Below, piece by piece: positions 2,564 to 63,105 of a stretch of DNA of 64,000 nt. Positions within the stretch are counted from its first letter, which is position 1; each line of letters begins with the position of its first letter. The position numbers were made by a program, and so were the translations under genes. Origin of the DNA: Eledone cirrhosa (Eukaryota); assembly GCA_964016885.1 (NCBI GenBank), contig OZ024744.1:98394001-98458000 (forward strand), read 5' to 3'. The notes under the pieces are model-generated. The model was not told where the DNA came from. It made no database searches and was given only the letters and a program-made list of their open reading frames with translations.

Positions 2564-2878
2564 ACGTTATTATTGTTAATTTTACTGATGTAGTATTAAC
2601 TTGGATATTTACCATGCGACCCTCAGTTCCTACCTCACAATTTCCCTCCCCCACCCCCACACACCACCATAGCCTATTCGACCAATCAAACCTAGCATGC
2701 CATTTCCACTGCTGCTGCTGCTGCTACTACCTGCCTAACTAACTCTCTCCTCCTCTGGCGCATCCCAACACACCCTGCCATTACCCCACCACCACTGTCC
2801 TTCTAGCCCTCAATTTTCCCACCGTTAGGGATGGATGAGCTGGGAATACACGAGCAACTCTGAATCAATAGATGAAAT

Positions 2879-5800
2879 ATGAATCTGCGAGCTACCAAGC
2901 ACCCACGTGAAGCGCCAACCCAGAGACCCTCCCCTACGAGTGTCGACAAATGCCCAAAACTCCGAGTTGGTACCATCAATGTAGGCTCAATGAAAGGAAG
3001 AGCAGGAGAAATCGTAGAAATGCTAGAGCGAAAGGAAGTTGATGTATGCTGTGTGCAAGAGACTAGATGGAGAGGAGGGTCTGCTAGAGTCCTTGTAGGA
3101 AAAAGCCAGTGCTACAAATTTTTCTGGGTGGGAAATGACGATGGGATGGGTGGTGTAGGTATACTATTAGCTGACAAGTGGGTAGATAAAGTAATCTCAG
3201 TGTACAGGGTAAATGCAAGAATCATTAAACTCAGACTAGTCCTGAATAAGACAATTACCACAATAATATCAGCTTACGCACCCCAATCGGGGCTGCCAGA
3301 CGAACTTAAGGATAGGTTTTACGAGTCCCTAATACACACTACTGCTCTAACAGACGACAAGGACTTCCTAATCATTGCAGGAGATTTTAACGGACACGTA
3401 GGTAAACACTGCGACGGCTTCAATAGAGTACATGGAGGCCATGGAGTTGGCACAAGGAATGAGGAAGGATTCAGACTTCTAGAATTCTGCGACGCCAATG
3501 ACATGTCGATATGTAACACAAACTTTAAAAAACCCGACAACCACCTGATCACCTATAGATCAGGGGAGCACTCTAGTCAGTTAGATTTTATCCTCATCAG
3601 AGGACGTGACAGATGGACGGTCGTAAACACAAAAGCCTTCCCTAGTGAGGAATGTACATCCCAACATAGCTTAGTTGTCAGCGACCTCACGGTCAGAACT
3701 AGACGAGCCCTGAAACAGAGGCCAACCTGGAGAAGAAAGATCTGGAAGCTGAAAGTCCCCTCAACCAGTAACAGATTTAAAGATATTTTACTCAACGCCT
3801 ACGACAGTAAAGAAGAACAGATAGAGACATTTAACGTAGAAGAGAACTGGGAGTTCCTAAAAAATAACTTACTAGAGGCGACGGATGAGGTTTGTGGCTG
3901 GAGTAAGACCTCAAGCAGGAGGAGAGTGACTTGGTGGTGGAACAATAAGGTAGATGAAGCAGTCAAGGCCAAGAGACAGGCATGGAAAGAATGGAAGAAC
4001 GGGGGGAGCAGGGTACATTACATAGAGACCAAGAGGGAAGCTAGGCGACAAGTATACTTAGCTAGGAGGGAAGCAGAGGATAGAAAATTCAAGCATGTTT
4101 TACAACGTGAGGACCAGAAACAGGAGGTATTCAAGATTGCGAGGCAGTGTGTCAGAGATAGTTGTGATGTCATTGGAGAGAAGTGTATCCGGAATGATAA
4201 AGGTGAGCTTGCCCTCACAAGTGCTGAGAAGAAAGATGCATGGAAGAGTCATTATGATAGATTACTAAATGAGGAGAATGCATGGGAAGAAGAGACCCTA
4301 CCCCACGTAGACCCTATAGAGGGACCAGCAGTACAAGTCAGCGGCAGCGTAGTAAGTAAGGCAATCAGAGATATGAAGATAGGGAAGGCAACCGGTCCAT
4401 CGGGTATAGCTGCCGAGATGCTGAAGGCATCTGGGTCTGTAGGTCACACTATAACCACACGTATCGTTAACCAGGTAATACTAGAGGGGGCCATACCAAA
4501 AGATTGGTGCAGTAGCATCATTGTCAACTGCTACAAAGGTAAAGGCGATGCACTAGATAGAGGAAACTATAGAGGTATAAAGTTGATGGACCAGGTCATG
4601 AAAGTAACAGAAAGAGTTATAGCACAGCTGATTAGGGACCGGGTGAATATAGACGAGATGCAATTTGGGTTTGTTCCAGGGAAAGGCACCACTGATGCGC
4701 TCTTCCTTGTGAGGCAATTACAGGAAAAGTACCTAGCTAAAAGTAAGCCACTCTACTTGGCATTTGTCGACCTTGAGAAAGCCTTTGACAGAGTTCCACG
4801 TGCAGTAATCTGGTGGGCTCTTAGAAAACTAGGAGTAGATGAATGGCTTGTGAAAGCGGTACAAGCCATGTATAGGGGAGCAGTCAGCAAAGTTAGGATT
4901 GGCAATGAGTATAGCGAGGAATTTAGCGTACAGGTTGGGGTCCACCAGGGCTCTGTTCTTAGCCCTCTCCTGTTCATCATAGTCCTGCAGGCAATAACGG
5001 AGGAGTTTAAGACCGGATGCCCATGGGAACTCCTGTATGCTGATGACCTCGCACTCATAGCTGAATCTATGGTAGAACTAGAGAATAAATTCCAAACCTG
5101 GAAGCAGGGACTAGAGAGAAAGGGCCTCAAAGTCAACATGACAAAGACTAAGGTCCTTATAAGTAGACGAGAAAACAGAACCCAGATCCCCTCAGGGAAA
5201 TGGCCTTGCTCAGTATGTAGGAAAGGTGTAGGTAGGAACTCCATTCTTTGCCCCAAATGCAAACAATGGGTACACAAGAGATGTAGCGGGATCTCAGGAA
5301 GCTTAATTAAGAATGTAGGATTCACATGCAGCAGCTGTGCTGAAACAGCAAGCAAACAGCCACAGGAAACAAGTACCACCAATCTCTGGGAGGGCCCTGT
5401 AGAAACAGTAGACAGCTTCTGCTACCTAGGTGACCGAATTAGCAACGGAGGTGGGTGCTCAGAAAGTACAATAACTAGGGTAAGAACGGGATGGAAGAAG
5501 TTTAGGGAACTACTACCACTGCTAGCTGCAAAAGGCTTCTCCCTCAGAATGAAAGGCAGACTGTATGATGCGTGTATCCGAACAGCGATGTTGCATGGTA
5601 GTGAGACCTGGGCGCTGAAGGTGGAAGACTTACGTAGATTAGAGAGAAACGAAGCCTGCATGCTCCGATGGATGTGTAACAGTAATATACGTGAACGACA
5701 AAGCATAAATGAATTGAGAGAGAGACTGAGCATAAGAGGAATCAAATGCTGCGTGCAGGAGAGGCGGTTACGCTGGTATGGACATGTGATGCGTATGAAG

Positions 5801-5998
5801 GATGACAGCTGCATAAAAAGGTGCAGAGCACTAGAAGTTGATGGAAACCGTGGAGTGGGGAGACCCAAGATGACTTGGGATGAGGTGATAAAAGCCGACC
5901 TTACCCAACTACACCTCTCAAAGTCAATGACACACGACCGTGACTTCTGGCGTCACGCAGTAATACAGGGTACCCGACCTCCCATGGGTACATGCTGA
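2879..5998 (+). CDS. RTE-clade non-LTR retrotransposon protein: APE endonuclease + reverse transcriptase + PHD-like zinc finger (1039 aa, uninterrupted)
   Basis: APE motifs GTINV, CCVQET, GDFNGH, QLDFIL, SQH; RT motifs QFGFVPGKGTTD, FVDLEKAFD, GVHQGSVLSPLLF, YADDL; C-terminal RLRWYGHVMR...GRPKMTW. Confidence 0.97.
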   Translation: MNLRATKHPREAPTQRPSPTSVDKCPKLRVGTINVGSMKGRAGEIVEMLERKEVDVCCVQETRWRGGSARVLVGKSQCYKFFWVGNDDGMGGVGILLADKWVDKVISVYRVNARIIKLRLVLNKTITTIISAYAPQSGLPDELKDRFYESLIHTTALTDDKDFLIIAGDFNGHVGKHCDGFNRVHGGHGVGTRNEEGFRLLEFCDANDMSICNTNFKKPDNHLITYRSGEHSSQLDFILIRGRDRWTVVNTKAFPSEECTSQHSLVVSDLTVRTRRALKQRPTWRRKIWKLKVPSTSNRFKDILLNAYDSKEEQIETFNVEENWEFLKNNLLEATDEVCGWSKTSSRRRVTWWWNNKVDEAVKAKRQAWKEWKNGGSRVHYIETKREARRQVYLARREAEDRKFKHVLQREDQKQEVFKIARQCVRDSCDVIGEKCIRNDKGELALTSAEKKDAWKSHYDRLLNEENAWEEETLPHVDPIEGPAVQVSGSVVSKAIRDMKIGKATGPSGIAAEMLKASGSVGHTITTRIVNQVILEGAIPKDWCSSIIVNCYKGKGDALDRGNYRGIKLMDQVMKVTERVIAQLIRDRVNIDEMQFGFVPGKGTTDALFLVRQLQEKYLAKSKPLYLAFVDLEKAFDRVPRAVIWWALRKLGVDEWLVKAVQAMYRGAVSKVRIGNEYSEEFSVQVGVHQGSVLSPLLFIIVLQAITEEFKTGCPWELLYADDLALIAESMVELENKFQTWKQGLERKGLKVNMTKTKVLISRRENRTQIPSGKWPCSVCRKGVGRNSILCPKCKQWVHKRCSGISGSLIKNVGFTCSSCAETASKQPQETSTTNLWEGPVETVDSFCYLGDRISNGGGCSESTITRVRTGWKKFRELLPLLAAKGFSLRMKGRLYDACIRTAMLHGSETWALKVEDLRRLERNEACMLRWMCNSNIRERQSINELRERLSIRGIKCCVQERRLRWYGHVMRMKDDSCIKRCRALEVDGNRGVGRPKMTWDEVIKADLTQLHLSKSMTHDRDFWRHAVIQGTRPPMGTC

Positions 5999-7330: not shown

Positions 7331-9555
7331 TAAAAAAAGAAACCAAGATCCTGACTTATACACCCTTATTTCCATGGATGCCTAACTAACCTGACCAAGG
7401 ACACATTGAGCACTCTAGCACACTAATGTGTCTTTGGTCAAGCTGGTGAGGTATTGATGGAAATAGTGCTGGTGCCACCATAAAATGCACCCAGTCAAAC
7501 ATGTGGTAGTGCCATAATCATGATAAAATGCTCCAAGTACAAACTGTGAAATGGTTGAGTTTTACTAAGGGCATCCAGCCATAGAAATATGGAAATATGA
7601 TAACATGCCTAATCCATGCACCCAGTCCACCCTGTGAAGTGGTAGTGCCAGAACCACAATAAAATGCTCCCAGCAAGTTGTAAAATATTGATGTGTGTTG
7701 TGTTCTTGAGCAAAAAACTTCATTTCACGTTGCTCCAGTATACCCAGTGTGGACGTGTGGTAAGGGTGTTGGACTTAGGATCTTAATGTCGTGGGTTCAA
7801 TTCCTGGACTGGTTTGTGCGTTGTGTGTTCTTGAGCAAAACACTTCATTTCACATTGCTCCAGTATACTCAGCTGAAAATGAGTACCAGCAGAAATAGTT
7901 AGGAGTTTAACCCTGTGTTGGACTGGTGTCATGTCCAGAGGAGAGTCTGGTTCTCAGTTGCTTCCTATAATGGAAACTGCAATAAGCTCCAGTCTGATGA
8001 GCCTTTGGAATTGAGACAAACTTTAGGCTTAAAATTTCTTAACAAAATTAAAAATGACAATTTATTACTTAGAAAAATAGTTTCAAGTAAAAAATATGAA
8101 AGTAATGAAGAATGAATAAAATATTTCTTTATGAAAAATGATGTGAAGTTTATTTTATTTTAAAATGTTACTGTTCTACTGGACAATATTTTACATAGAT
8201 ATGGTGTCACGTAAAGAACAACTATTCTGTACATCTTCTGTTTTCTATGTCCCTCAGTCTGACTCTCAAACTTCTAAGTAATAAACACAAGTTATATATC
8301 TTACCATCTCACATATATCACTTCAACACTTGCTAGGAACTTCCTTCATATAAGAAGAAAACATGCAATTATGTTAATATATTTGCAGTAAAAGAAACCC
8401 AGAACCTTCTGGCTGGTGGGGAGAAGAGACTGACTCTCCTTTAATATCCAACCCAAATGCCGAGTCTCTTCAGACTTTGCATGATAATCTCAGTCCCAGT
8501 TTCACCTCTGAAAATTGTGGCACACACACACACACACATGTACATATGTACATTTATTTATTATGATTCATACACATGATAATCCATTTGCAACCAATGA
8601 TTTCATAAGCTAACAAAGCGTACAGAAATGCAAGCTATGGATGTTAGTCATATCTTCAGGTGAAAGTACATACAAATGGCTGAACAGATTTTGCAAAAAA
8701 AAAGTTTCCCAGAAAAGGATAAGAGGATATGAGAGAAAAACACAAAACTATGGAAAATATTATTATTATCGTGTCCACAAGAGTGTCAGCTACAAAGCTT
8801 GGCTAGATGCGGTTCCACCTCAGATGAACACATTGCTGTCCTTTCTCATTAAAGACTGCCAAGTCCAATATATATTGGAAAATGTGTGAAATCCTTGGTA
8901 CAGTTAGGTATATTTGAAAAAATAGGAAAAGAATGACTTCACTCGTAGTTCTAAACAATTTAATTTTATAATTTTACAATTTTGAGCAAAATTGTATAAT
9001 TGTAAAATTATAAAATTAAATTGTTTAGAACACCAACTAAAAGTTCTTATCGTGACCACAAGATTTTCAGCTACAAAGTTTGGCTAGATGTGGTTCCGCC
9101 ACAGCTGAACATATTGCTGTCCTTTCTCATTAAAGACTGCCAAGTCCAATGCTGTGCAGGGGTGTTCCAGCAGGGGAAATATCAGGAGGTGCTGCATAGT
9201 CTGTGGTTTCACACAGAACGTCCCCATCCTTTAAATACCCCCATTTTGCCAGATTGACCTTTGCACGACCAACACCAGATCTTAAACTGTTGAGGCATTT
9301 ACACACTGCTTAGTTTGTATCTGCTCCGGGGGCAGTGCTTCACTCGCCTTTAGCTCCATTGTTGTTACAGAGGGGTGGTTGATAAGTTTTTCTTCCCAGT
9401 GTGTGACTCTTTCACTATGTTTGCTTGATGTTCCAAGGGGGTGTGATACTCTTTAGGAAAGTTTTCCTGGATTTAAGGTGGCTTTTGTCTGGCCGAAGAG
9501 AGGATGTTTTTGATCTGTAGTCTGTTGTTTACGCTCTTTATTGCTTGTTGCACAA
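7086..9555 (+). repeat. Copy A of a ~2.4-kb inverted, permuted segmental duplication (partner ~31050-33385)
   Basis: Near-identical reverse-complement match; ORFs 7915-8115/32185-32385, 8641-8889/31383-31661 and 9021-9257/33008-33232 are paired. Confidence 0.95.
7690..8020 (+). mobile_element. tRNA-derived SINE with CORE-like central segment (partly duplicated)
   Basis: A/B-box-like gtggtaagggtg...gtgggttcaattcctgg followed by tgtgttcttgagcaaaacacttcatttcac...aaaatgagtacc. Confidence 0.7.
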
Positions 9556-13997: not shown

Positions 13998-14047
13998 CCA
14001 TACCGAGAACAATTGTTTCACCTTAGCGGATCCTCAGCTCGTAATGG
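13998..14047 (-). ncRNA. Type I hammerhead ribozyme motif (minimal, PLE-type)
   Basis: Minus strand ccau-ua-cgag CUGAGGA u-cc-gcuaa-gg-u GAA A-caauug-U U cucg-gu-augg: stem I 4 bp + 2x2 loop + 4 bp, palindromic stem III, GUU site. Confidence 0.7.
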
Positions 14048-14355: not shown

Positions 14356-15954
14356 TATATATATATTTATTTATTTATTTATGATGATGATCATCAATCA
14401 TCACTATTTAACGTCCATTTTCTATGCTGTCATAGGTTAGATGGGTTGTCATGTCATGAGACAAGTCAGGCCAGGTGACCTTGTCTTGCTCATATGGATC
14501 TGTATTTTGGCTTGGTGTCTGTGGATGCATTGCCTTTCCTAACGACAACCACATGGACTGGGTGCTATATATTGTGGCACCCGAAGAACTCCCTACAACA
14601 TGATAGACATGTTACTTTTTTTTTTATCATGGTACCAACATGTCCAGCTAACCTGGTGGACCTGGTGTTTTTGTTTTTGTGGCACCAGCACTATCACTGT
14701 ACAGGCTTATCTGGGTAGCACTTTGTCATGACAACAACAGTATGGGAGCTCAGGTGAAGAACATGTCCAGCTTTCCATCCATGAATGTATATTTTGGACA
14801 GGTGTGGAAGGTGGTTCTGGTGGTGTGTAGTGGAGTACATCCTGATCATTGTAAACCATCTATATCCCACACTCTCCTGAGAAGGCAGGTTGTCATGCTC
14901 TGAAACAAAGGCTGGACAGAAGAACATGTCTAGTTCATACATTCCATATTCTTCGTTTTTCCATGTTGGCATGGGTTGGACAGGGAGTGAAGTGCACCCA
15001 TTTTTGTATGTTGACATGGGTGAGGGAGGGGATTGAATGTAAGGGCTACCCCTTTTATAGAGAAATGGAGTGGGGCAAGCGTGGAGGGGAGGAACTGTCT
15101 TTGTTGGAAGTGAATGAAGGAGGAATAAGGTAGAGGGAGTATACAGGATGGGGTTGGGGGAAGTGAGTGAGTGAGGTCTAAGATGGAATATTCAGCTGGA
15201 TGAGTATTAAGATGGGTGGGTGGGAGGGGGGGAATTATAGGGTGGGAGATTGGTGCAGACTAATGTCCTCTAAAGGTTTGTTTCATCCTATACACGTGGA
15301 AAGGAGGATATTCTGCAATACAACATAACACCAGAGAACTTGATCCTGCATCCTCACTTTGGAGAGGTTTAATCAACTGTCATCAACCATATGCATCATA
15401 TGGTGGTGGTGGTGGTGGTGGTGAGGAGGAGGAGGAGGGGGAGGAGGAGGAGGGAGGGGGAGTATCTAAACTATTTATAATTTTTTTCTCTTTGATGGTG
15501 TCTCATAAAATGTTCAGCCTTGTGTTCTGTCCAAGATATTCTCAAATTCTTCTATAAACCCACATCTTAAAAATCTCTATGAGGTGGGGCTGAAAAGTTC
15601 TTGGCTTTGGGTAAAAAAAAAAAAAATACAGGAGGATCATTGGTGCAGACTTGTGTGCTCTGTATTTGTTTCATCCTATGCACATGGTCGTGATGTAGTG
15701 GTGGTGGTGGTAGTGGTAGTGATGATGTGTGGGTGTTTGTGCTTGAATAAGTGTGTGCAAATGCTTGTGTTGTATGTGTGAGTGTGTATATATAGATATA
15801 TATATATCTGTGTGTGTGTCTATATATATATATATATGTGTGTGTATGTATAAAACTCACTTAATTACATGCAATACAACTGGGTGTATATATATATATA
15901 TATATACTTCCCTACAGGACATAAATACAGACCTATCTTTAATAGATACAGAGT

Positions 15955-16480
15955 AAAACTTAGATATTCCTGTGCTAAAAATATGAAAGCCCACATCATG
16001 ACCAGCACCAAGAGCTCTTCCCCGACCAGATGCTCTTGCAGAAGGCCACAATCATGCCCTCTACTACAACAGTGTAACACACCTACAGTCGTCTATGAGG
16101 CTGAAGTTACAACCACTCGGACAAATCAACAGCAGGAGGTCAAAACATATGTAAGTATGTTGGAGGGTTGGTTTAAAGAATGCTTCCTTAACAATCAGAC
16201 AACCTTTAAACGCTCTGATAAGTGATCGTCCACGAAGCTGGCAAGCCATGTATGATCACTCAAAATGCAGACATGAATTTTTCCAATGAAAAGTTTTAGT
16301 CAAATCCAGGCCATACAAAAAAGGAGCAGTGTCCTGTAAGTTGTGTATTGATGAAAGAGGGAATATCTTGCGGAGCTTACGTAACAGCACCTGCCTTAAC
16401 ACGGCAGCTGATTATTTTTAATTGCTGCTCCCACACTGCAAAGTTTCTATTATATAACTGGAAGGACCCAAGATAACCAG
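15955..16480 (+). pseudogene. Penelope-like element 3' fragment (Cys linker + GIY-YIG endonuclease)
   Basis: 'KLRYSCAKNMKAHI...CSCRRPQSCPLLQQCNTPTVVYEAEV...TYVSMLEGWFKE'. Confidence 0.85.
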
Positions 16481-20899: not shown

Positions 20900-22470
20900 T
20901 GTAACGTGTTCTTATTTAGAATTGTCTGTGGAACTGGATGCATGTTGAAAACGACTAGTAACGACTCGTATATTTTACAGTTTTATTGTAATGGACAGTC
21001 GTCTTTTTTTCTGCAAGAGCATCCCGGATCTTCATCTGGTTTGTTTTTTGGCAGTCATTTTGGATCTCATGGATGGCGCGCAAGAATAGGAAACTCACTG
21101 AACGTCTATTGGCAGTTTTACTGTATCTATGTTGCGGAATGAAGTGCTTATAAATAAGGTATAAGAATTTCTTAACTACATTAGTTTTTATATTTAATGA
21201 GAAAGGTGGTACAAACCAGATCAATTTTATTTCTCGGTGGGTGACTATTAGGTATGTATTTGATCTGTTCCTTAAACCCACTATCTCGGAGGACCTTGTT
21301 ATATACGGCGCCGCCTTTTGAAATATGTTTCTATTGGCTGATAAGTTAATGTTGGGCACTAGATTTTTTAAAAACCGTAGGTGGGTGGCATGATCCTCTG
21401 TTGATGTATTTTGCTCTCTCATTCACTTTATGTTGGGGTTTATATGTGCCTGTTGATAGGTCCAAGCTGATGTCAAGAAAGTGACGTCCGAATCGACTGT
21501 GCTAAAGGTGCATATCAGATCATTAAAGAAGCTGTCCATATCGTGCCTGCTGTAGTCGTGGGTCAAAGAAAGACCAATGTCGTGATGGTGTGGTCGAGAG
21601 ATTTACGTTTAAGTGTATAGTGGATGTATAATCCAACAAGATTACATATATACACGCTGTCATACGATCCCATCGTGACGTCGAATGAATCTTTTGGGCC
21701 GGATTTTCTTTTTTACGGAAGCGGTGCAGATGTTAAATGTTCTTTGTGTGTGGTAATCAAGTCAATCTCTTGGTCACTGATAGATCCAAAGGCCTTGTCT
21801 AGTAGTGGTTTAGTAATAGAAGGGTAAAAATCGATTATATCGAATTGGGTAAATTTAGCTCTGTTCTTATATATATTGTAGTGTGACCTACAAACAGGTC
21901 ACACTACAACTCATAAACCATGCAAGAACAGAATTAGGGCTAGCCAGTAAGAACATTTTAGGAGAAATTAACACACGTATCATAAACAACACAAATGTGC
22001 TGCTGTGGAACAATACTAGATTGGTTATGTCTTTGAACCAGGATATAACCAATCTAGTATTGTTCCACAGCAGCACATTTGTGTTGTTTATGATACGTGT
22101 GTTAATTTCTCCTAAAATGTTCTTACTGTCTAGCCCTAATTCTATTCTTGCATCGTTTATGAGTTGTAGTGTGACCTGTTTGTAAAACCCAATTTGTTAT
22201 CCTTCAGGGTAATAAAGGCATCATACTTAGCCAATCTTTCTAGTCTATTATCAATTTTAAAGCTTCTAGCTACTCATTTGGCCTCGTTGTTAATATAATT
22301 GTAAGAGTCAGGTTTGGTCTTCTGGTACTTGTTTGTTATATTGCTTAGCATAAGGTGACAATATCTATCTCTATTTACCTCATATAAGTTTTAAATCTTG
22401 TCAGAAAAAAAAAAAATATATATTATTTGACGATCTAAATTTCTTAATATCTTTTATGGAGGTTTCTTTA
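20900..22470 (-). mobile_element. Penelope-like retroelement RT/thumb fragment, degenerate, with internal foldback
   Basis: Minus-strand 'FTQFDIIDFYPSIT', 'SFDVTMGSYD', 'IWFVPPFSLNIKTNVVKKFLYLI'. Confidence 0.85.
21889..22184. repeat. Near-perfect palindrome (~140-bp arms)
   Basis: tacaaacaggtc...tagattggttat / ataaccaatcta...gacctgtttgta. Confidence 0.95.
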
Positions 22471-23180
22471 ACACGCCGACGTGTATGTGTATATGTGTGT
22501 GTGCGTGTGTGTGTAGATTGTATGTAGACTGTACAACATCAAGGGCGATGCCCCAGCATGGCCTCAGCTGGATGGCAGGAACAGGTAAAAGAGTATGCTG
22601 TTTTCTGTAGTCTGCCATTACCCCTTCCTTCCTCAGTCATCTCTAGTGCATGAAGTCATCACGCCTTCCTTCCTCAGTCATCTCTGGTATGTGACGGATA
22701 GATGGATGGAAGCGGCTCAAATTTATATATAGATGAACGTATTTTGGAAGGAACTTTGGTACTTATGCAAGCGATTTGATGTCTGCTAAATCTTTAACTT
22801 TGAGTGGGTACTAGGTTGACTTGAAATTGAATCTTTCAGTGGCAGTAGTTACCATATCTCTGTCAAAATGTAGAGCCTTACATCTCAATCTTCGTACCAC
22901 AGCCTCCACTTTTTCTAATAGGATTTTGGAGTAGAAGATAGTAGGTATCAGAATGTTCTTGGAAGAGTAGTCTATTTCGTATATGTCTATTATGTTGATA
23001 GGAGGATTTTTTTTCAATATGCTGACGCATATGTGTTTTGCCTGTGTGTATGTGTATGTGCATATGCATACATTTATATGTATGAATATATAAATATAAA
23101 CGCACAAACACAGACATGTATTCACACAAACACACACACACAAACACACACACACAAACACACACATACACTCGCACACA

Positions 23181-23875: not shown

Positions 23876-24863
23876 TCATAATCTATAAAGCTCATGTGTG
23901 TGGTCATGCTCCTTCATTATAGAAATCTACGATATAGAATTTCTTCAATTGAAATTTACAATTCAGTATTCGAAATAGTTTCGATTGCGTCTTGACGCAG
24001 ATAATTTTTTCAATTTCACCCACAATTACGCAAAAAATAGATAAAACTCAATATTTTACGATTTTTTTCTCTCATTTAAACTGCTAAACTCTTTCTACTA
24101 CCATTCAAAATCTATACAACTTCATACTTTCTGCTACTTTCTCTTTCCAAGCTTGATGGTGATACTGTCCGTTCACACCACTCCCTACTGTCTTAAATTT
24201 AGAAAACACATCCTCTATGAGGTTACTAAACCTGCTAGAAACAGCAGCTAACTCTCCCCCATATCACACCCCTCCCCACTGTCTTAAATTTAGAAAACAC
24301 ATATCCTCTATGAGGTTACTAAACCTGCTAGAAACAGCAGCTAACTCTCCCCCATATCACACCCCTCCCTACTGTCTTAAATTTAGAAAACATATCTTCT
24401 ATGAGGTCACTAAACCTGCTAGAAACAGCAGCTAACTCTCCCCCATATCTCACCACTCCCTACTGTCTTAAATTTAGAAAACACATATCCTCTATGAGGT
24501 CACTAAACCTGCTAGAAACAACAGCTAACTCTCCCTCATATCACAACCCTCCCTACTGTCTTAAATTTAGAAAACACACAGACATCCATGCAGAACAACT
24601 CCATCGCAGCTCTGTTGTTCGGCTGGCATCGTCTACGCGCGTGTTGCGCAAGTACTGTGAAACAATAAATTTCAACACTTTTTGCACAGAGATAATATCC
24701 ATAGGCGAAACTACAATTGTCACTGCTGGCGCAGCTCCTGCTTCCAGGTTTGCAATTCATTCACCCAGTGCCTAGCAGACAAAAAAGTGCTGCCATAAAA
24801 TGGGTGGTGCAACCTAACTTTGGTAACTTAATGACCCCGAGCAACGCCGGGCTTTAATGCTAG
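23876..24863 (+). mobile_element. Non-autonomous Helitron with an internal minisatellite
   Basis: 3' hairpin cccgagcaacgccggg followed by CTAG|T at 24860-24864; putative A|TC 5' end (less certain). Confidence 0.65.
24175..24580. repeat. ~93-bp tandem repeat (~4.3 copies)
   Basis: Repeated ctccctactgtcttaaatttagaaaacac...gctaactctcccccatatc. Confidence 0.93.
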
Positions 24864-26427: not shown

Positions 26428-27330
26428 TCAATGGATCTCTTTTCGTCCATTGACAGCCACTGTGAAATGTTTGGGGGTGTGCGAAAGCACACGAAAAGGT
26501 CCATTATAAGGTGACGTAAGAGGTCCCTTGACGGAATCATTCCGTATGAAAATGTGTGTCCATGTAGAGATGTCCGATGGGACAGCAGAAGAAATAGACT
26601 GGTCACGAGGGTTCATCGGTGGAAGATCCGAGAAATACGAACGAATTCTGGTGACATATGATGCTGGGTCAAGATGTGATGAATCCACTGGTGCTAACAT
26701 TTGTCCAGGAAGAGACAAGGTGGTACCATAAAGAAGTTCAGCAGAAGAAAAACCTAAATCTGTCTTAATGGCAGAACAACAACTAAGAAGCACGATTGGC
26801 AAAAATTCAGTCCAACGTTGCAGATCAGGAGTAGCGCGAAGTGCAGCTTTCAACTGTCTATGAAACCTCTCGACCATTCCATTGGAGGCTGGGTGATAGC
26901 TGGTCGTATGAATGTGATGAGCACCCAAGAGTCGTGATATTTCACAAAATAAGGAAGCTTCAAATTGGCGTCCATGATCCGTAGTTATTTTAGTAGGAAC
27001 ACCGAAACGAGCAATCCAATTGGAAATGAAGGCTCGCGCAATGGACTCTGCTGTTATGTCCATGAGGGGTATGGCTTCAGGCTACCGAGAGAAACGATCG
27101 ATACAAGTCAATATGTATGTGAACCCACGACTAACGGGCCATGGACCAACAATATCCATGTGTATATGACGGAAACGTGCGTCTGGCGGGCTGAATTTCC
27201 TAAGAGGAGCGCGGATATGCCGATAAATCTTAGAGCGCTGACACTTCAAGCAAGAACGTGCCCAAACTGGTGATTAAACGACATATTAGACCAGAAGAAT
27301 CAAGCCGTAATAAGCTTCACCATGGTAGCT
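26428..27330 (-). pseudogene. Gypsy integrase (disrupted)
   Basis: 'FGVPTKITTDHGRQFE', 'HTTSYHPASNGMVERFHRQLK', GPY/F-like 'PYNGPFRVL'. Confidence 0.92.
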
Positions 27331-28657
27331 ATGCCAAGGTGTGACAAGGAATAAGTGCATCAAAAACGGTACGCTGATGACAATCCGGAACAAACGGTCT
27401 GGGTGAACCAGTAGAAATATCACAAAGAATTTTTCCTTCAGCAGATGGAAGAGGTAAATAATCAAACTTACAGCAGGAAAGTTGGGTAGAAGAAATGTTC
27501 AACGAATCCAAAGTAGTTTGGTCAGTTGCTATGGCAACTAAATCGATATGTGCAGGAGACGCAAGAGAACACACAGAAAGTCGAGATAGTGCATCCGCAG
27601 GTATGGTGGCAGTTCCAGCTATATGACGAATGTCACTGGTATACTGGGAGATGAGATCCAGATGCCTATACGCTCTCGGAGAGTACCTGTCGGATTTGGT
27701 GTGAAGAGCGAATGTGAGTGGTTTATGGTCTGTGAATACCGTGAATTCCCGACCTTCAAGAAGATGGTGGAAATGTCTCACAGCAAGATAAATCGCTAGA
27801 AGCTCTCTGTCAAAAGTACTGTATCGTTGCTCTGTTGGTTTTAGTTGGCATGAGAAAAATGCCAGTGGTTGAACCTGGTGATCGGTCGCATCTTGCAAAA
27901 CTGCATCAACAGATAAGGAAAGTCTCGCATTTGCAACAGGATGGGCAAGGAAGGAAACTTTGGCTAGCTCAGACTTGATGGATTCAAAAGACTGCAAGGC
28001 ATTGGCAGAAAGTAAAATAGGAGCATCTTTCTTTTTTGCAGCCTTTAAAAACTGTGTCAAGGGGAATAACTTGTCCGCACAGTTAGGAATAAAGCGACGA
28101 TAAAAGTTAATTAATCCCAAGAAATGGCGTAATTGTTTCAAGGATGTTGGTGGTGCGATATGCTGAATCGCTTCTACCTTAGATGGCAAAGGTCGAATGC
28201 CTTCTGAATCTATAAGGTGTCCAAGGAATTCCAGTGAATCTGTCCCAAACACACATTTAGCTGGGTTGATTCTGACTTGGTACGATTGGAGACGTTGAAA
28301 TAACTGAGGTAGATGTTGATGATGATGCTCAGCTGAATCACTGGCTATTAGGAGATCATCAATGTAAGCAAACACGAAATCCAATCCACGCGTGACTTCA
28401 TCGATAAAACACTGGAACGTACTAGAAGCATTCCGCAAACCAAAAGGCATGGACAGAAATTCAAACGAACCAAAAGGGGTGGTCACAGCTGTTTTTGGTA
28501 TGTCTTCTGGATGCACGGGTATTTGATGGTAAGCGCGTACCAGGTCTATTTTAGAAAATATCTTGCATCCATGCAGAACAGATGAAAAATCCTCTAAATT
28601 TGGTAAAGGATAACGATCAGGTGTAGTGATGGCATTAAGTCGTCTATAATCTCCCAC
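27329..28657 (-). pseudogene. Gypsy reverse transcriptase + RNase H
   Basis: 'DYRRLNAIT', 'FSKIDLVRAYHQI', 'MPFGLRNA', 'YIDDLL', 'YSTFDRELLAIY', 'TDHKPL', 'ADALSR'. Confidence 0.95.
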
Positions 28658-28705
28658 AGGTCTAAAATCTGCCTCACCCTTACGAGCTAAATGAAGCGGA
28701 GATGC

Positions 28706-29330
28706 TCACGGGCTGGTTGACGGTCGTATAAGACCAGGCTGAAGCATGTGATCGAACTCATCCCTGGCTTTCTTTAACCTGTCTGGAGCCAGCCTACGTG
28801 GACAAGAAAAAACAGGCGGAGCAGTTGTTGTAATAAAATGTCGAGTCGAGTGGACTACTTGGTTCGGTTTAAATGAAATGTCAGTTAACTCAGGAAACGA
28901 GGCAAGAAGTGAATGAAACTGGTTTCCAGAAGCAGCTATAAAACACGCGGGACTTATGACAGTAGGGGTAGAACCATGAGCAGGCGTAGATAAGGATGTG
29001 GTACCATCCACAAGTTTCTGTCTCCTGACATCTACTAACAGTGAATAGTGGTGTAAAAAATCAGCACCGACAATAGGAGGAGGTACGTCCGCTACGACGA
29101 AAATCCATTTGAAATCTCGACGCAAAGCTAGGTCCAATGATAAAGATATTTGTCCATAAGTTTTTATAGGAGACTGGTTTACTGCATACAAGGAAATACC
29201 GGAAAAATTTGGCTTGGTAGAGCTGAACCGAAGGGGCCAAATACTGCAGCTAGATCCTGTGTAGACCATAAATGATTTGTTTGAAGCTCGATCTCTGATA
29301 AAGAAAGCACGATAAGGAGAATTAATGAGG
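28706..29330 (-). pseudogene. Gypsy aspartic protease region (catalytic DTG appears as YTG)
   Basis: 'FMVYTGSSCSIWP...PIVGADFLHHYSLLVD'. Confidence 0.85.
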
Positions 29331-29361
29331 GAGAGGTCTGCTGTGCCCAGACTCTCCAATT

Positions 29362-30143
29362 TTAGTTTTCCGAGGTCTCGAAAGAGCAGGGCTGAATACA
29401 ATGATTCGCCTTTTCACGAAAACGCACGTGATACCAACACAAAGACGAGTTGTTGGCGGGGAGGTTGGTGCGACGAAGAAGAGAAAGAGACCGATTCCAT
29501 GAACGCCACCTGGATGGTGTTCGCTCCCGACACAGTTTAGCCATTTGACGAGTTAACGCGTCAATGGCTCTCAGTATAGAGTCCTCACGAGATGAAACAG
29601 GCTGTTTTAAAGGTAGAAGAAGCAATGAGTGGATCTGCCGAAGTAGGCACTCGAGAAAATTCCATTATGCGATCCGTCGAGGCTGCAATTTGGTCCAGAG
29701 AACTGGTGTCGACCATATTTGCCAATATGGTCTGCACATTTGTTGGCAAACGGGAGAAAAATAATTGTTTCACGAAAGAGTTGTCCTCTGCTGTTGAGTC
29801 GCTCAGTTCCCAGATGTGCCATAAAAACTGAGACAGGGTTCTATCTTCCAGGTTTTCCTCCTCCAACAAGGAACGAAATTTGCTCTCAGACGAACGGCTG
29901 TTCTGTCTGAGCACTTCAGCCTTTAGTGTTTCATAAGTTATGCCTTGTGGGGGGATCTGTGATTATGTCTTTCACTGACGTGGCGAGCGATGCAGGAATT
30001 CCGCTTATGAGCACATGTAACCTTTGTTGTGCTGCTTGAACGCCGTGGACAGCAAAATACGAATCTAGTTGTGCAAACCACAACTTTGCATCACCTGAAT
30101 ACGTCGGTAGCGAAGAATTGCTCATTATGAATGTAGTAGCCAC
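29362..30143 (-). pseudogene. Gypsy gag (frameshifted)
   Basis: 'LPTYSGDAKLWFAQLDSYF', 'LEDRTLSQFL', 'LCWYHVRF...CIQPC'. Confidence 0.85.
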
Positions 30144-33394: not shown

Positions 33395-33810
33395 TTGTTA
33401 TACTTTGGGAGGGTCATGTTGCCAATAAGAAACACACGCACCAGTTGCTTTCACTCCAATTTATTATAAATTAAATTTATAAATTTCCGGTTGGTTGGTT
33501 GGTTCCATAACCAGACGGTTGTTCATATATTGTTAAAGTTCTTTCGTCACACATTCTGTGACCTCTTCAGTGACTGGGGATTCTTTTCTTTGTTTTGTGC
33601 CTCTCCTACGCCATTTTGTTTTTTCAAAACAAGATGGCATTGGACAGAACAAAGGAGAGGCACAAAACAAAGAAAAGAATCCCCAGTTACATAAGAGGTC
33701 ACAGAATGTGTGACGAAAGAACTTTGACAATATGTGAACAACCGTCCGGTTGTGGAACCAACCAACCAACCGGAAATTTATAAATTCTTAAATTTATAAA
33801 TTTAATTTAT
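33395..33810. repeat. Inverted pair of Penelope-type pseudo-LTR segments, each with a hammerhead-like motif
   Basis: 33470-33605 is the reverse complement of ~33657-33790. Confidence 0.8.
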
Positions 33811-37100: not shown

Positions 37101-38022
37101 CTGATAGGGTTATGTGTGTTATAATTTCCCAGTTCCATGTGGTGAATCTTTGGAATAGTGTTTAATAAATATTAATGGCCCTAATAGTTGTTCTAATAGG
37201 GTTATGTGTGTTATAATTTCCCAGTTACATGTTATGGAAAGTTGCGGTGAATCTTTGGAATAGTGCTTAATAAATATTAATGGCCCTAATAGTTGTTCTG
37301 ATAGGGTTATGTGTGTTATAATTTCCCAGTTCCATGTTATGGAAAGTTGCGGTGAATCTTTGGAATAGTGCTTAATAAATATTAATGGCCCTAATAGTTG
37401 TTCTGATAGGGTTATGTGTGTTATAATTTCCCAGTTCCATGTTATGGAAAGTTGCGGTGAATCTTTGGAATAGTGCTTAATAAATATTAATGGCCCTAAT
37501 AGTTGTTCTGATAGGGTTATGTGTTATAATTTCCCAGTTCCATGCTATGGAAAGTTGCGGTGAATCTTTGGAATAGTGCTTAATAAATATTAATGGCTCT
37601 AATAGTTGTTCTGATAGGGTTATGTGTTATAATTTCCCAGTTCCATGTTATGGAAAGTTGCGGTGAATCTTTGGAATAGTGCTTAATAAATATTAATGGC
37701 CCTAATAGTTGTTCTGATAGGGTTATGTGTGTTATAATTTCCCAGTTACATGTTATGGAAAGAAGTTGTGGTGAATCTTTGGAATAGTGTTTAATAAATA
37801 TTAATGGCCCTAATAGTTGTTCTGATAGGGTTATAAATGTGTGTTATAATTTCCCAGTTCCATGTTGTGGAAAGAAATTGTGGTGAACCTTTGGAATAGT
37901 GTTTAATAAATATTACTGACCCTAATAGTTGTTGTGAGTGGGTTATGTGTGTTATAATTTCCCAGTTCCATGTTATGGAAAGAAGTTGTGGTGTATCTTT
38001 GGAATAGTACGTAATAAATATT
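37101..38022. repeat. ~105-bp minisatellite (~9 copies)
   Basis: Unit ctgatagggttatgtgtgttataatttcccag...ccctaatagttgtt, e.g. at 37298 and 37403. Confidence 0.96.
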
Positions 38023-38660
38023 ATATTATATTGCCAATAAACATTAACCCTTTGTGTGCCATTCATCTAACTGTAGACCAACAAATACCAACTAAATGGA
38101 GCGTTGACAACAACGATGGAGAATGAATCTTCGAGGTAAGGAGTTTCCTCCCGAGCTGTTAGTTCACGCGGGATTCTCTGCTATGCCTTTCCGTAATAAT
38201 ACCGAACAACGTACTGCTGGTCACTCCTTCCTCCAAAAGCCATACAAAGTGGGCATGTGCATTGGGCAGATGGATCGGGTGCAAATCTACACCAGGCCTA
38301 CGCGAGAAATTCGCAAGGGACTGCACCGAGCGGGATAGAGAGAAAGAGTAACTTAGTGGAAAGAGTGCGAATGAACTTTTGAGGTAAGTAGCCTACGCCT
38401 TACTGCTATGACGCCCTCTGCCAACTTAACCTGTGACTTTCTCTTTCACATTTACTACAATAGTCCAAAACAGAGGAGTATGAAAAGAAGGGGCTCAACA
38501 ATATTTCTAAGAACAATGCACATAGACAGCTAAACTGTACTTTCAACTTCTTAATTTTCTCCAAATAAAACAAGTTTCCTGTCGGTATATTTTCGTGAAT
38601 TTTTAACAGGCACTCACAAATAAACGTTTCTCATTGGAGGTGCTATTACCAATGTTCTTA

Positions 38661-39605: not shown

Positions 39606-40242
39606 TATATATATGATATATATATATATCAAGTGAGGTTGTTTGGTTGTTGTGAAAGAGGATGATAAACACAACAAATACCAATAATTCTGGTTGGATA
39701 TATGACTTTACTTCACTTCAGCAAAAAGGAAAAAAGCATATGATTACTTCAGATTGCAAATATAAAGTTTGATTGCAGTATTCACAAATTAATATAGTGT
39801 TCAAAAAGGCTTCTGAGATGTTCTCTTAAAAAGAGACAAGTTGTAGTAAGATAGTATGTACCAGCATAGGTAGTAGTAAGCTCGCAGTGGCAAGAAAGCT
39901 GTGTTGTCTAAGACAACAAGAGGCAGATGAGTGAGTGTGGTTGAAGTGCCAATGGAAGAATTGCTGTCGTGCCCTTGTTGAGAAGGCCGGAGTTTTTATC
40001 TTTCGATTTTTTTTTTTTTTGTTAAGTGCTACATCTCGCTACTTGCTTGAGCAACTCGAAGTGATCCTTCTTTTCCGGGGAGCCAGAGTCGATGGACTCA
40101 ATGAAAAACTTATCTCATTTAACATCAAATTGGCCAGCCTCTCCAGCCACTGACGCTGAGATAAAGAGAAACAGCAACCAGATGTTCGGGGACCAGTATG
40201 TGCGAAGAGATTTCGCTACATGTATGTATATATATATATATA

Positions 40243-41533
40243 CGAGGGGGGATCAAAAAGTTCGCGGAATTTTTCAGAAAATAATCTATTTTTCAAAAAA
40301 TATGATTTACCTTCAATTTATTTTTCTACATAGTTGCCATCCAGGTCAATACACTTCACAAGGCGATGCTTCCAGCTTCGTAAGCCATCTCTAAAGAAAG
40401 TTGAAGGCCTTGTTCGAAGCCATGTATTGGCAGTGTTTTTAGCTTCTTCAACACCACTAAAACGGGTTCCTTTTAGCATTTCTTTGAGTTTTGGAAAGAG
40501 GAAAAAGTCTGATGGGACTAAATCTGGACTATAAAGTGGGCGAGGAAGCACTTCCCATCGAAATTCTCGAAGAACTTTTTTTGCAACCCGCGCTGGTGCA
40601 TTGTCATGGTGAAACAAGATCCCACCATGAAGTTTCCCTTTTCGTTTCTTGACTAATGCCTCTTTCAGCTTCCTTAAAACATTTGCATAGTAAGCTCCTG
40701 TCACAGTTCTTTGACCTTCAAAATAATCTATAAGTATCACCCCATCTGAATCCCAGAAAATGGTGGCCATCACTTTTTTTATCCGACTTTTGAGATTTGA
40801 ACTTGATTGGCCCTGATGATCCACGTGGAAGCCACTGTTTTAACTGCTGTTTGGATTCAGGATCATACTGGTAGATCCAGGTTTCATCTCCGGTGATGAT
40901 TCTGGTCAGGAAATGCTCTTCATCAACTTCAATTTTGTTTAATATCACCAAAGACAGATCACCTCGAAGAATCAGCTGATCAGGGCGCAACGCTTTTGGG
41001 ACCCATCGCACTGAAAGCTTGCTTAGTCCCAAATTATCATGCAGAATTGAATTTGCCGAACCATATGAAATGTCTAGGGACTTAGCTAACTGATTAACTG
41101 TTATTCTTCGATCTTCTTCAATTAAAGTCTGAGCAGCCTCAACGTTTTGGTCATGTTTTGATGTTCCTAGTCTTCCACTGTGATGGTCGTCTCTCCCTTG
41201 TTTGAATCGCTGAATCCACTTGTAGACAGCAGTTTTCTTTGGAGGAGTAGTACCGTAAACTTTAACTAAAGCCTCCATAATCTGTGTCCCTTTCCATTTG
41301 AGTTTCACCAGAAACTTGATATTCGATCTTATAAAATAACTATTTTCCATTGTTCCAAAAAGAGGTTTTTTAAAGAGTGTCAGTACTGTACAATAGTCTG
41401 CGCATAACTGACTGCAAGTGACTAATAGCAAGGTAAACACCCAGTGACACTGTTCTGACATGTTTAATATTGTTTTAACCTGATTTTTTTTCTTGCTACG
41501 ATAAAATTCCGCGAACCTTTTGATCCCCCCTCA
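40243..41533 (-). mobile_element. Full-length mariner (DD34D-type) transposon; transposase split by a frameshift
   Basis: TIRs cgaggggggatcaaaaagttcgcggaattt / aaattccgcgaacctttt...cccctca, TA flanks; WVPKAL, TGDETW, HHDNAP, YSPDLVPSDFFLF. Confidence 0.96.
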
Positions 41534-41579
41534 TATATATGTGTGTGGGTATGTGTGTGTGTGTGTATATATATACATA

Positions 41580-42115
41580 TATAATTGAATATAAAAGAGA
41601 GATAAACGCAGATATATACATATATGTGTTCAAATCGTAAGGGACCAGATTCGCTAGGCTGAAAAAAATACTAACTATGAACAATAGGGTTTGCCAGACT
41701 CAATTTAAAATAATAAATCAAGAAAATAAATACAAACTGATATTGGGGCAACTGCCAGACACCCAGACAGCTGTTTCGCAATTTTAGTGAAAGGGAATTA
41801 CCAATTCTTTTGCTCATCAGTGGGTTAAAATTAGTAAACCCTTCACTTCTAAGTATTTCAAAAGACTGAATAGTGTGCGTATATAAAATAACGCACATGG
41901 CATCAGAACCTAGCGTGTCTCATAAATGTATACTACTAAAAATAGCAGCCAAGTTTATTCGACATTTAAATTAGCTCTACATATTGAAGGAGCCGAATAT
42001 ATCAAAGGTATATATTGAGTTAGAAACTCAAAATAGTCTCTTACAATTAAATAGCTCAAGGAAAGAGATTTTTTCCAAGCCGTGTAGTATAATTGAATAT
42101 AAAAGAGAGATAAAC
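41580..42115 (-). mobile_element. ~508-bp unit with 28-bp terminal direct repeats carrying a hammerhead ribozyme (PLE pseudo-LTR / retrozyme-like)
   Basis: tataattgaatataaaagagagataaac at 41580 and 42088; hammerhead inside. Confidence 0.7.
41761..41825 (-). ncRNA. Type I hammerhead ribozyme with canonical core and GUC cleavage triplet
   Basis: accca CUGAUGA GCAA-(long loop)-UUGC GAA A-cagcug-U C ugggu: 5-bp stem I, G10.1-C11.1 stem II, palindromic stem III. Confidence 0.85.
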
Positions 42116-42134
42116 ATATGCCTGCATGTATGTA

Positions 42135-42595
42135 TGGCAAGCTTTGTGAGGGTAAGAGTCCACCTCACAAGCTAAGGGTCCGATTCAAGGATTGTGTAAA
42201 GGACTCATTGAAAAAAAACTGCTTTGATGATGGCTGACTGGGAGATAGAAGCTCTTGAAAGTGAAACTTGGCGTGGAATGGTGAATGATGGGGTCCATAA
42301 TTTTGAGGACAGCCGCATAGAGCACGAGAAGATGAAACGGGATGTGCGTAAGCAATGCCCTGGTGTAGCTCTCGAAACGATCGGTGTCTCCCTTGAATTG
42401 AAGTGCCCCGAGTGTGGAAAAATTTGCTTGAGCACATCTGATCTCAGGAGTCACAGTCACAGCGGTGTTTTGAGGATTCACGGGCAACCTGATGCAGGAC
42501 CTCAAGCCAGGGAGATCCGTAGTTGTTGTCAGTATGTGAAGGAGTGCAAGTCTCTAGCAGGCTTGAAAAGCCATATCCGAGTGTCACACATCTGA
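42135..42595 (+). pseudogene. Duplicated 3' end of a BovB/RTE-like LINE with C2H2-like fingers
   Basis: Near copy of 44137-44520; 'CPECGKICLSTSDLRSH', 'CKSLAGLKSHIRVSH'. Confidence 0.85.
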
Positions 42596-42687
42596 ATCTG
42601 ACAAGCGATTACAATACTCTTGGCAGAGTTTGCAGCCATCATGTATGTATGTATGTATGTATGTATGTATGTATGTATGTATGTATA

Positions 42688-59924: not shown

Positions 59925-60510
59925 TCCTCAAGGACTAGCTGATTTTGGTGTTTCTATGTGGTTGCTTGGTCTGCATAATATAGTTGTCAGAAGTTGCTGG
60001 AATATGATGTTGTTCATTTGAAGGATTTGATTCATTCTTAGGTCTCTTTTTAGTAAAGGTATGTTCTGTAGGATGGTGTCGAATGCCTCATTGTTAAGGG
60101 AGTTGTGTGAGGAGATGTATGGTAGAGTTTTCAGTTTTGGATTCATTCCTTGGTTTGGGTTGTCTAAGTTCTAACCAACAACAAAACAGAAACAGACAAA
60201 TACTATAAACCCACAGACTTCAAACAGTATCTTCGATTCAACTCATGCCACCCTAGACACACCAAAATGAGCATTTCTTACAACCTAGCCAAAAGGATCT
60301 GCACAATAGTATCTGATAAATACACATGCTATATACAACTAGAAGAATTAAAGAACACACTTATTAGCAGGAATTACCCACCATCTCTAATCAACAATGG
60401 ATTCCAACGTGCCCTAAAACTCAACATCCAGGAACTTAGACACCCCAAACCAAGGAATGAATCCAAACTGAAAACTCTACCATACATCTCCACACACAAC
60501 CCCCTTAATG
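59925..60510. pseudogene. Penelope-like RT thumb fragment with an inverted partial duplication
   Basis: 'YKPTDFKQYLRFNSCHPRHTKMSISYNLAKRICTI'; 60093-60171 is the reverse complement of ~60432-60508. Confidence 0.85.
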
Positions 60511-62200
60511 GGAGTGGGGAGATATCGAAATTGGGGTCCCGCCCAATATCTCTCTCTAAATTCTCTGCCTCTCCCCTCCAATCTTCCCCATTCTCAATCA
60601 TTGCACCTTATATCCACTGTACCATACTGGCCACTGATATAGGCATCAGATCTGTTCAGCCCTCTCCTTTTCTTGATATTTTTCTACTCATCTACTCACA
60701 TGTCATCTGCTTTACGAGGTCATCTACATAACCGGAAATATCTTTGGTTCTGTTTGTATTTACTTTATCACTACCACAATCCCTGTCAACCTCACCAACC
60801 AATCTGGCAAAATGGGGATATTTAAAGGTTGGGTACATTGTGTGTGAGTTTGGCATCGAACTACTGACTACTCAGCACCTCCTGATATACCCCCCCCCAC
60901 ACCCCTTCCTGATGGAACACTCCTGCACAGCATTGGACTTGGCAAAGTTTAATGAGAAAGGACAGCAATGTGTTCAGCTGTGGCGGAACCGCATCTAGCC
61001 AAGCTTTGTAGCTGACATTCTTGTGGACATGATAAGAAAGAAAGACCTCACCAGACTACTCACTCTCTTCTAGCATGGTAGTTAAAAACTGGGTTTAAGA
61101 GAAACTAGATGTAGGTGTGCAATAGAGAAGACTGCATTGGTATGGACATGTGATGTGCATGGATGATGAGGAAATGCCAGTGGATGGAATCCGCAGTAGA
61201 GATAGACCAAGAAAGACTTGGGCAGAGGTGGTGAGAGCTAATCTCAAATCACTGAAACTCACAGATGACGATAAAGAAACACAGTGAGTGGAGAGATGCT
61301 GTGCTGAAAAGGACCTGTTCAACCCATGCAAGCATGGGAAAATAGATGTTTAAAACAATGATGATAACGATGGTGGTATCATATCTGTTTATGCCTCCAG
61401 AACCCAACCATCACTCTCTTTTTGATGCCAAGTGTCACTCCCTCTCTCCAAGACAACTTCTTATTGTCATTCATGTTGTTCTCCCACCAACAAATGTGTA
61501 TTTACTATTACACTCTTTCCTGTTTCATAATATTCTCACTACCTTTTCTCATTACTTCTTTTCACTTATCATTCCCGCCAACACAGTCTCTCTCTCATTA
61601 CACCCCTCTGCGACTGCTCCCCTCACCCTAATTCATTCTGTCTTTCTCCAACCATGCGCTCATACTCCTTTGCCTGATCACCCTGTTACTACGTTTGTCA
61701 TACTTTCTCTTTTTGCTGGTCATGTACCTTACCTTTTTAGTATTTACATTACTCTATATTTACTAATATATTTTCACGGTAAACACTTTATCTCATATAA
61801 TATCGAATCTGTCAGCTTTTGATATTAATACCATAGCATAAGTATGAGTGGCCAGTTATGGCTGGTTTGAACAGAAGATGGTGAGAGAATTCTGTCCAGA
61901 TATGGCTGGGTTAAATGCGCAGACAATATCAAGTGTTGAGCCTTCCCATAGTCTTGTTGTTGGTGCCTTACAAATATGCACCCAGTGCTCTCTACAAAAT
62001 GGTTGGTGTTAGGACCGGTTTTGAACAATGTAGAAACCATGTCAAGAATGGGATGTATGAGCCAAGACCTTATTATCAGACTGTGATGACCTGTCCAACC
62101 CATACCATTGTGAAAAAACAAAACAAACATATAGTGATGAGGATGTGTGTGTGTGTGTATATACATATATACATATGCATGTGTATAGTATAAAAATATG

Positions 62201-62654: not shown

Positions 62655-63105
62655 GCTTTCCTGATGATTTCCTTCGAATGAAACAGTTCTAGTCTTGTAG
62701 AAGCCATTTCTATATTAAATATTTATACTCTGCTATATATTGCGTACCTTACTTACTGTGGTTACCCTCGATTGAACCCGGGATACACACACATGGGTGT
62801 GTGTGTATATATATATACACACACAAACGTGTGTGTGTGTGTGCGTGTGTATATATATACACACACGTTTATGTATTTGTTTTGCAAGATTGTTGATGTG
62901 AATATATTTGGGGACGGACATGTTGCCAGTATTGCCAATAAAAATATTAAGACCAGAAAGAAGAGGAGGCACAAAGGAGAACAGATGGTCATTGAGGAGG
63001 TCACAGAATGTGTGGTGAAAGAACTTTGAATAACAAATGAATGACAAGCAATAAAGATAAAGTGAAAATCATATGATGCATGTGTTTCTTCATTGGCAAT
63101 ACAGC
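62655..63105. repeat. Penelope-type pseudo-LTR fragments with two degenerate hammerhead-like motifs
   Basis: 62988-63030 matches 33686-33728; CTGATGA-ttc/gaa-GAAA at 62661-62683; 62870-62910 resembles 48060-48095. Confidence 0.55.

Follow-up and report, generated by a model that had tools for sequence, protein, structure and literature searches.

Invertebrate genomes rich in hammerhead-bearing PLEs and retrozymes have already been described, and PLEs have been named as candidate mobilisers of the retrozymes (Cervera and de la Pena 2020, PMC7229834). A recent preprint (Li, Clavereau, Pollet 2026, bioRxiv 10.64898/2026.07.22.740005) makes the case that retrozymes are derived from PLEs and non-autonomous. 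The enzyme of Poseidon PAc (Frangieh et al. 2024, PMC11167929) is a predicted dimer that uses two internal RT start sites and by which both target strands are cut and extended. Qualitative descriptions also exist of a tail that is present on one of two inverted pLTRs (PMC3846280, PMC8557442).

Here, we compared a hammerhead-bearing repeat with these systems. It lies in a 64-kb window, by which we mean the whole stretch of 64,000 nucleotides that was analysed. The repeat is probably a damaged copy of an ORF-less hammerhead element that was copied into a (TA)n tract by a Hydra-clade RT/GIY-YIG protein, with cDNA started at two sites on a circular or tandem RNA. This explanation rests on a closed period without an ORF, the 5′ truncation of the copies, their ends at the two sites A and B, the rule by which these ends are paired, and a similar module in the Hydra 5′ UTR. 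The features of the window copy and its surroundings are as follows.

41580 to 42115, minus strand: putative retrozyme copy, single-armed and 5′-truncated, of 536 nt (the 508-nt period plus a 28-nt overshoot).
41761 to 41825, minus strand: type I hammerhead motif, with the predicted cut after C17 at 41766.
41767 to 41774, minus strand: shortened palindromic stem III, resulting from a 12-nt deletion in the window copy.
41829 to 41846, minus strand: arm in the 5′ flank complementary to loop II, a candidate pseudoknot or inactivating helix.
41787 to 41806, minus strand: arm in loop II that pairs with the 5′ flank and overlaps the small loop-II hairpin.
41580 to 41607, minus strand: 3′ end of the window copy at the fixed site A (unit position 28/536), followed by the TA/CA microsatellite.
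42053 to 42088, minus strand: internal site A (42088) and, immediately 3′, a GCUC...GAGC-type hairpin with one mismatch in the window copy.
41973 to 41997, minus strand: fixed site B (41997, unit position 119) and, immediately 3′, a GGCUCC...GAGC hairpin.
41541 to 41579, no strand: TA/CA microsatellite target, common to the retrozyme copy and the adjoining mariner insertion.
40236 to 41540, minus strand: neighbour outside the element, a broken mariner transposon with 38-nt inverted repeats and the domains HTH_48 and Transposase_1.
42131 to 42686, plus strand: neighbour outside the element, a LINE 3′ fragment (presumably RTE-like) with an (ATGT)n tail and a second copy at 44133.

The 28-bp direct repeat of the original prediction is exact, at 41580 and 42088 with a spacing of 508. 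However, it is only the overshoot of a 5′-truncated copy and no feature of the family. The predicted unit or circle length of 508 nt was likewise shortened by the deletion; the family period is 500–519 nt (12 measurements), and the predicted circle is ∼515 nt. No second arm of the copy lies within the 64-kb window. A unit-length circle cannot be cut from this copy, because it holds a single ribozyme. With one arm, one damaged ribozyme and the module at its 5′ end, it is predicted to be inert and is probably a dead end.

All of the hammerhead parts that had been predicted are present on the minus strand at 41825–41761: CUGAUGA, GAAA, GUC, stem II GCAA/UUGC and the loop-II hairpin. When the 64 kb were scanned structurally on both strands, the motif was the sole match; the same scan of shuffled windows produced 0.1 loose and 0.01 strict matches per window. 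An Rfam scan, which had been proposed as a check, returned no hammerhead among 81 window matches; an Rfam hammerhead match is also absent in four other family loci (L014, L090, L042 and L141). The long loop II is the likely cause. In 87 aligned copies, stems I, II and III are mostly 7–8, 4–6 and 5 bp long, and stem III is capped by a loop. The predicted stem I, ACCCA/UGGGU, is present in the window copy, but it is short by one base compared with the family stem of 7–8 bp. An intact core (CUGANGA, GAAA and NUH) was parsed in 59 of the 87 copies, a set partly selected by the core pattern itself. By its core and three helices, with stem I open, the motif is a type I hammerhead for which self-cleavage is predicted.

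The original prediction also saw a minimal, dimer-dependent ribozyme with a palindromic stem III. The palindrome is true of the window copy's sequence, and salamander ribozymes of this type exist (PMC7229834). In the family, however, it is found in one of 87 aligned copies, where it corresponds to a 12-nt deletion between two AGC trimers. Genome-wide, the shortened stem occurs at two places at ≤1 mismatch, the second in a different subfamily, compared with 223 exact matches of the core. The palindrome therefore appears to be a recurrent deletion, and as a definition of the element this reading is refuted for the family and has next to no probability.

Stems I–III are paired in 93–97% of cells, calculated from 74 of the 111 available ribozyme regions. 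The outer pair of stem I, which like the 3′ strands lay outside the search pattern, reads AU in 37 of these 74 copies and UA in another 32, while loop III measures 5 to 10 nt. These counts are of sequences and not of events, and few subfamilies underlie them; two-sided pairs were as many as observed in 322 of 500 shuffles. The compensatory change in stem I and the stems kept across subfamilies would imply selection on the ribozyme fold.

The host genome of 3.0 Gb contains 3873 candidates for this family, and among 40 that were scored the near-full copies show 87–92% identity. The core pattern gave 223 exact matches genome-wide, and its control none. Several subfamilies are visible in the copy alignment. 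A first core pattern was discarded, as its gap was too long for the subfamily of the window copy and it retrieved sister subfamilies instead. The unit is ∼515 nt long with a GC content of 0.33 and has no ORF, as judged from copies that are the top-scoring ones and not a random sample. It is like the metazoan non-LTR retrozymes (PMC7229834) in being a non-coding, low-GC unit with a canonical type I hammerhead in a genome that also holds PLEs. However, their described period is 150–450 bp, and the copies analysed here mostly have fewer than two units, are dispersed and often lie head-to-head. The PLE-terminal-related retrozymes of the preprint (10.64898/2026.07.22.740005), which measure 51–972 bp and occur as dispersed monomers, are also similar. 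The argument for Xenopus given there rests on co-occurrence and pLTR trees, whereas here a two-site module is shared with Hydra elements and the insertion ends are mapped.

The unit copies show 5′ truncation, partial tandems, a head-to-head arm and a tail at one end, which are the marks of PLE-mobilised insertions. The original link between retrozyme and PLE thus gains support from the 5′ truncation, the fixed 3′ ends and the partial tandem arms. Since every PLE end feature is present in the unit and only top-scoring copies were seen, the unit might instead be a tandemised pLTR, or the truncated tail of an autonomous PLE outside those found. Yet, among 132 matches to site B, the unit sequence follows in 73 (68 assigned by rule and five by eye), the remainder end in AT-rich or microsatellite flanks, and none reaches an ORF, compared with 12 of 40 segments of the PLE family Hydra-C. 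A pattern that joins the site-B motif to the Hydra N-terminus matched only a rearranged copy of another such family, Hydra-A, and arms past one period close on themselves. A fixed junction to a PLE ORF was absent in tblastn of the examined loci. Constant attachment to PLE ORFs, by which the prediction would have been reduced to a standard pLTR, was looked for in the copies and did not appear; the unit is therefore not a plain pLTR, and we regard the truncated-tail alternative as highly improbable. By its testable features the family would be a non-LTR retrozyme with PLE-type integration.

The length of the arms bears on the template. Arms exceed 520 nt in 67 of 186 cases, and 28 of 30 copies chosen just 3′ of the predicted cut read through it. 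These long arms and the read-through exclude both a PLE mRNA and a linear monomer left by cleavage as the template, in agreement with the predicted monomer-plus copy from a tandem or circular RNA. A five-fold step of contig depth at the predicted cut, considered as RT run-off on cleaved RNA, was rejected, because the copies read through and depth is not copy number. The longest true arm is 874 nt. Two intact cores in tandem occur at only three of the examined loci (L010, L029 and L089), which could be the kind of locus able to give unit-length RNA. Two apparent tandems were set aside: a triple tandem of 1265 nt (L150), considered as rolling-circle evidence, looks like a later duplication, and two same-strand ribozymes 2.7 kb apart (L088), considered as a pLTR–ORF–pLTR arrangement, are a local duplication.

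The same element and the same Hydra enzyme could also be combined with a different template, namely RNA transcribed from a few source loci as a tandem or by read-through and left uncleaved, for which the hammerhead would be dispensable and no circle would be formed. Several results fit this reading. Arms are rarely longer than 1.7 units, and hammerhead mutants had no effect on insertion in vitro, as described for PAc (PMC11167929). In 59 copies, the ribozyme fold lies a median of 6.0 kcal/mol above the structure predicted to be most stable. Between successive passes in one arm the median divergence is 7.5%, higher than the 5.8% between opposite arms; a tandem source accounts for this no less well than a circle does. 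Shared rare variants, 25 in 7,641 nt with L150 excluded, point to neither source in particular. However, the selection on the fold implied by stem I and the kept stems argues against a dispensable hammerhead, and circles are the demonstrated product of other invertebrate retrozymes (PMC7229834). We consider an uncleaved template unlikely.

The family has two fixed 3′ ends, A at unit position 28 and B at position 119, separated by 91 nt. Among 149 termini in 86 loci, 116 lie at A or B, and 98 of these are then followed by TA, consistent with the (TA)n association that had been predicted. Public-run contigs also have loose ends in TA at 41997 (site B), with 44–49 contigs per large run. A minor third 3′ end is seen at unit position 107, where a short run of TA precedes site B by 12 nt (L011, L041, L059 and L088). 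Arms on both strands are present in 56 of the 86 loci. In a first sample, 107 loci gave 68 head-to-head junctions, of which 42 were classifiable and 40 combine A with B, ends near position 107 being counted as B; the binomial probability under independent choice is 2e-10. In a second sample of 26 further loci, obtained with a different query, 18 junctions were found, and all 14 that could be classified are A+B. We did not find this counted rule in print, although the supplementary data of related papers may hold relevant tails.

The pairing of the ends also bears on how the second arm arises. The mirror arm could be formed by fold-back or self-priming on the antisense template, with the tail on one side trimmed by the endonuclease, and not by a second primed cDNA. 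Such self-priming is proposed in PMC3846280 and PMC8557442, and opposite arms do share rare variants (77 in 10,946 nt, compared with 0.037 per 100 nt between loci). On the other hand, either arm may be the longer one (A in 21 and B in 19 of 40 two-armed insertions), (TA)n is met at both outer ends, and in PAc the tail ends map onto RT start sites, with both strands extended (PMC11167929). Fold-back is therefore an unlikely origin, and we prefer two primed cDNAs. The unit resembles PAc in that two internal RT start sites define the tail and the target is AT-rich. However, the PAc start sites are part of the ORF, where they fall in an AC-rich stem-loop, and in that account the two strands do not differ in where synthesis starts, whereas the sites of the unit are strictly paired in each insertion and belong to a non-coding parasite.

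Regarding the enzyme, PLEs with Hydra marks occur in the flanks of several unit copies. Hydra-clade PLEs (Craig et al. 2021, PMC8557442) are like the unit in their (TA)n targets, hammerhead, head-to-head arms and one-end tail, but the unit has no ORF. Compared with the marks listed in section 11 of that paper, Hydra-A (L092) carries RWR, DKT, a CxCX5C linker, CxxC/CxH and (TA)n ends. The translations of L092, L167 (Hydra-C) and L200 share an RWK-like motif and DKT (DKTK in L167), CxCX5C, a C-terminal GIY-YIG domain and insertion into (TA)n, and none has CCHH. These three would thus belong to the Hydra clade, assigned by motifs. An earlier label of the partner as Neptune was replaced on the same basis, and Pfam, PDB and Atlas provided no clade name for the protein. 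Further Hydra families are seen at L200 (G000:C3:194631000-194637000) and L233; Hydra-B has an uninterrupted frame of 830 codons and a 137-nt tail, and Hydra-C a 102-nt tail.

Hydra-A is young, with 40 scored copies at 99–100% identity, and it obeys the A+B rule in all eight classifiable junctions among 25. Hydra-C has a canonical hammerhead, and of its 40 segments 21 end at B, six at A and 12 enter the ORF. The two ends are 88 nt apart in Hydra-A, ∼102 nt in Hydra-C and 137 nt in Hydra-B; tails of 88–137 nt in this genome are longer than the 30–40 bp given in PMC8557442. A GCUC...GAGC-type hairpin follows each site in the unit, Hydra-A and Hydra-C. The distance from the cut to site A differs, at 186 nt in the unit and ∼27 nt in Hydra-A and Hydra-C.

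The module of the unit aligns in register and end-to-end with that of Hydra-C; for three copies, 4, 2 and 1 of 1000 shuffles score as high, although this score is partly selected, since Hydra-C was found via a pattern containing the site-B motif. The corresponding values in register with Hydra-A are 74, 1 and 45 of 1000, the match of the window copy being weak (74 of 1000, and 120 of 2000 in a separate run). Hydra-B was rejected as partner, as its module is no better than shuffles (500, 603 and 423 of 1000). Identity between the unit and any Hydra family is ∼60–65% over 150 nt; because it is low, the real partner may be an unsampled family. Direct junctions of the unit to Hydra sequence, seen in L090, L052 and L028 and involving two different Hydra families, may be template switches or nested insertions at the shared TA target. 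In all 44 matches, Hydra-A itself has CAGAAGA at the position of CUGANGA, with U-U as the basal pair of stem II (L092:4290-4360 and 7410-7480, minus strand; L097-L126); this may be a core variant that became fixed, or the ribozyme may be dead although the family is active. In the literature we found neither a Hydra-mobilised retrozyme nor a link of retrozymes to Hydra via the start-site module; supplements may hold related families.

Loop II of the unit is large, and a helix between it and the 5′ flank covaries. The duplex of flank and loop II has a median energy of −15.3 kcal/mol compared with −7.0 for shuffled loops, and among 71 parsed copies, 53 have a z value below −2. The 8-bp core of the helix is paired in 93% with no two-sided changes, and the distal 8 bp in 85% with three. 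Circular folding, which cannot represent pseudoknots, succeeded for 11 of 15 copies; the helix has a probability of at least 0.86 in seven and 0.00 in two, and two were unscored. Some subfamily variants lose one core pair of the helix yet retain the small loop-II hairpin; thus, both structures are possible. The helix is likely either a pseudoknot at 8 bp or a lock of the inactive ribozyme at 16–18 bp. Pseudoknots between the stem I side and loop II are known in all three hammerhead types (Perreault et al. 2011, PMC3088659) and are like the unit in this respect. The pairing in the unit, however, extends to 16–18 bp, which is probably too long to coexist with stem II, and the full helix would probably exclude that stem and possibly act as a switch. 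In this it would resemble the ribozyme locks of plant retrozymes, which are not predicted for most animal circles, whose ribozyme is expected to be unblocked (PMC7229834).

Taken as a mechanism, the preferred explanation would run as follows. By analogy with PMC7229834, source loci with two ribozymes would be transcribed, and the RNA would self-cleave and be ligated to unit-length circles. The Hydra protein, which is likely dimeric, would bind the hairpins just 3′ of A and B and nick both strands of the (TA)n tract. One cDNA would start at A and one at B, and the two would converge until their truncated 5′ ends are joined. Because the hairpins lie 3′ of the start sites, the full module is regained only if the RT rounds a circle or runs along a tandem. 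A bolder version, which we put forward tentatively and hold to be possible but doubtful, is that ribozyme-made circular RNA parasitises Hydra PLEs by mimicking their twin RT-start module. One dimer would then hold both hairpins and start one cDNA per target strand, the 'tail at one end' of PLEs would be the obligatory A+B pair, and the helix of flank and loop II would switch the hammerhead off in the circle.

Other repeats in the window were also recorded. The original count of at least four hammerhead families and three PLE coding remnants in 64 kb is roughly borne out, with three more exact-core candidates, which may represent families of their own, and three PLE coding remnants. The candidates lie at 14250-14190 (minus strand), 14041-14004 (minus) and 62657-62703 (plus); the one at 14041 has a (TA)n tract ∼35 nt downstream, like Hydra pLTR ends. 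The PLE remnants lie at 15854-16264 (plus), 21256-22993 (minus) and 60168-60731 (plus). Two are Hydra-like, and one we take by its motifs to be Penelope/Poseidon-like. A LINE frame of 1040 uninterrupted codons with endonuclease and RT motifs is located at 2876-5998 (plus), presumably RTE-like, and a broken LTR-retrotransposon gag-pol with stops and frameshifts at 26428-29962 (minus). A long, near-perfect inverted repeat at 33543-33717, with miRNA-model scores below the cut-offs, may be a head-to-head insertion or a MITE. Minisatellites with periods of 98, 93 and 105 nt lie at 955-2574, 24173-24578 and 37141-38023, respectively. Lastly, a 486-nt public-run contig matches both sides of the ribozyme region (L141:1024-1545) with 86 other letters between, and appears to represent a related family with a replaced hammerhead region.

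Two questions are addressed by this family, namely which enzyme moves animal retrozymes, and how the mirror-image insertions of PLEs with a one-sided tail originate. The family supplies a non-coding substrate of 515 nt, in which two start sites with a common hairpin have been mapped, and a strict pairing rule counted over 56 insertions. With young Hydra ORFs in the same genome, both questions are open to the existing in vitro assay.
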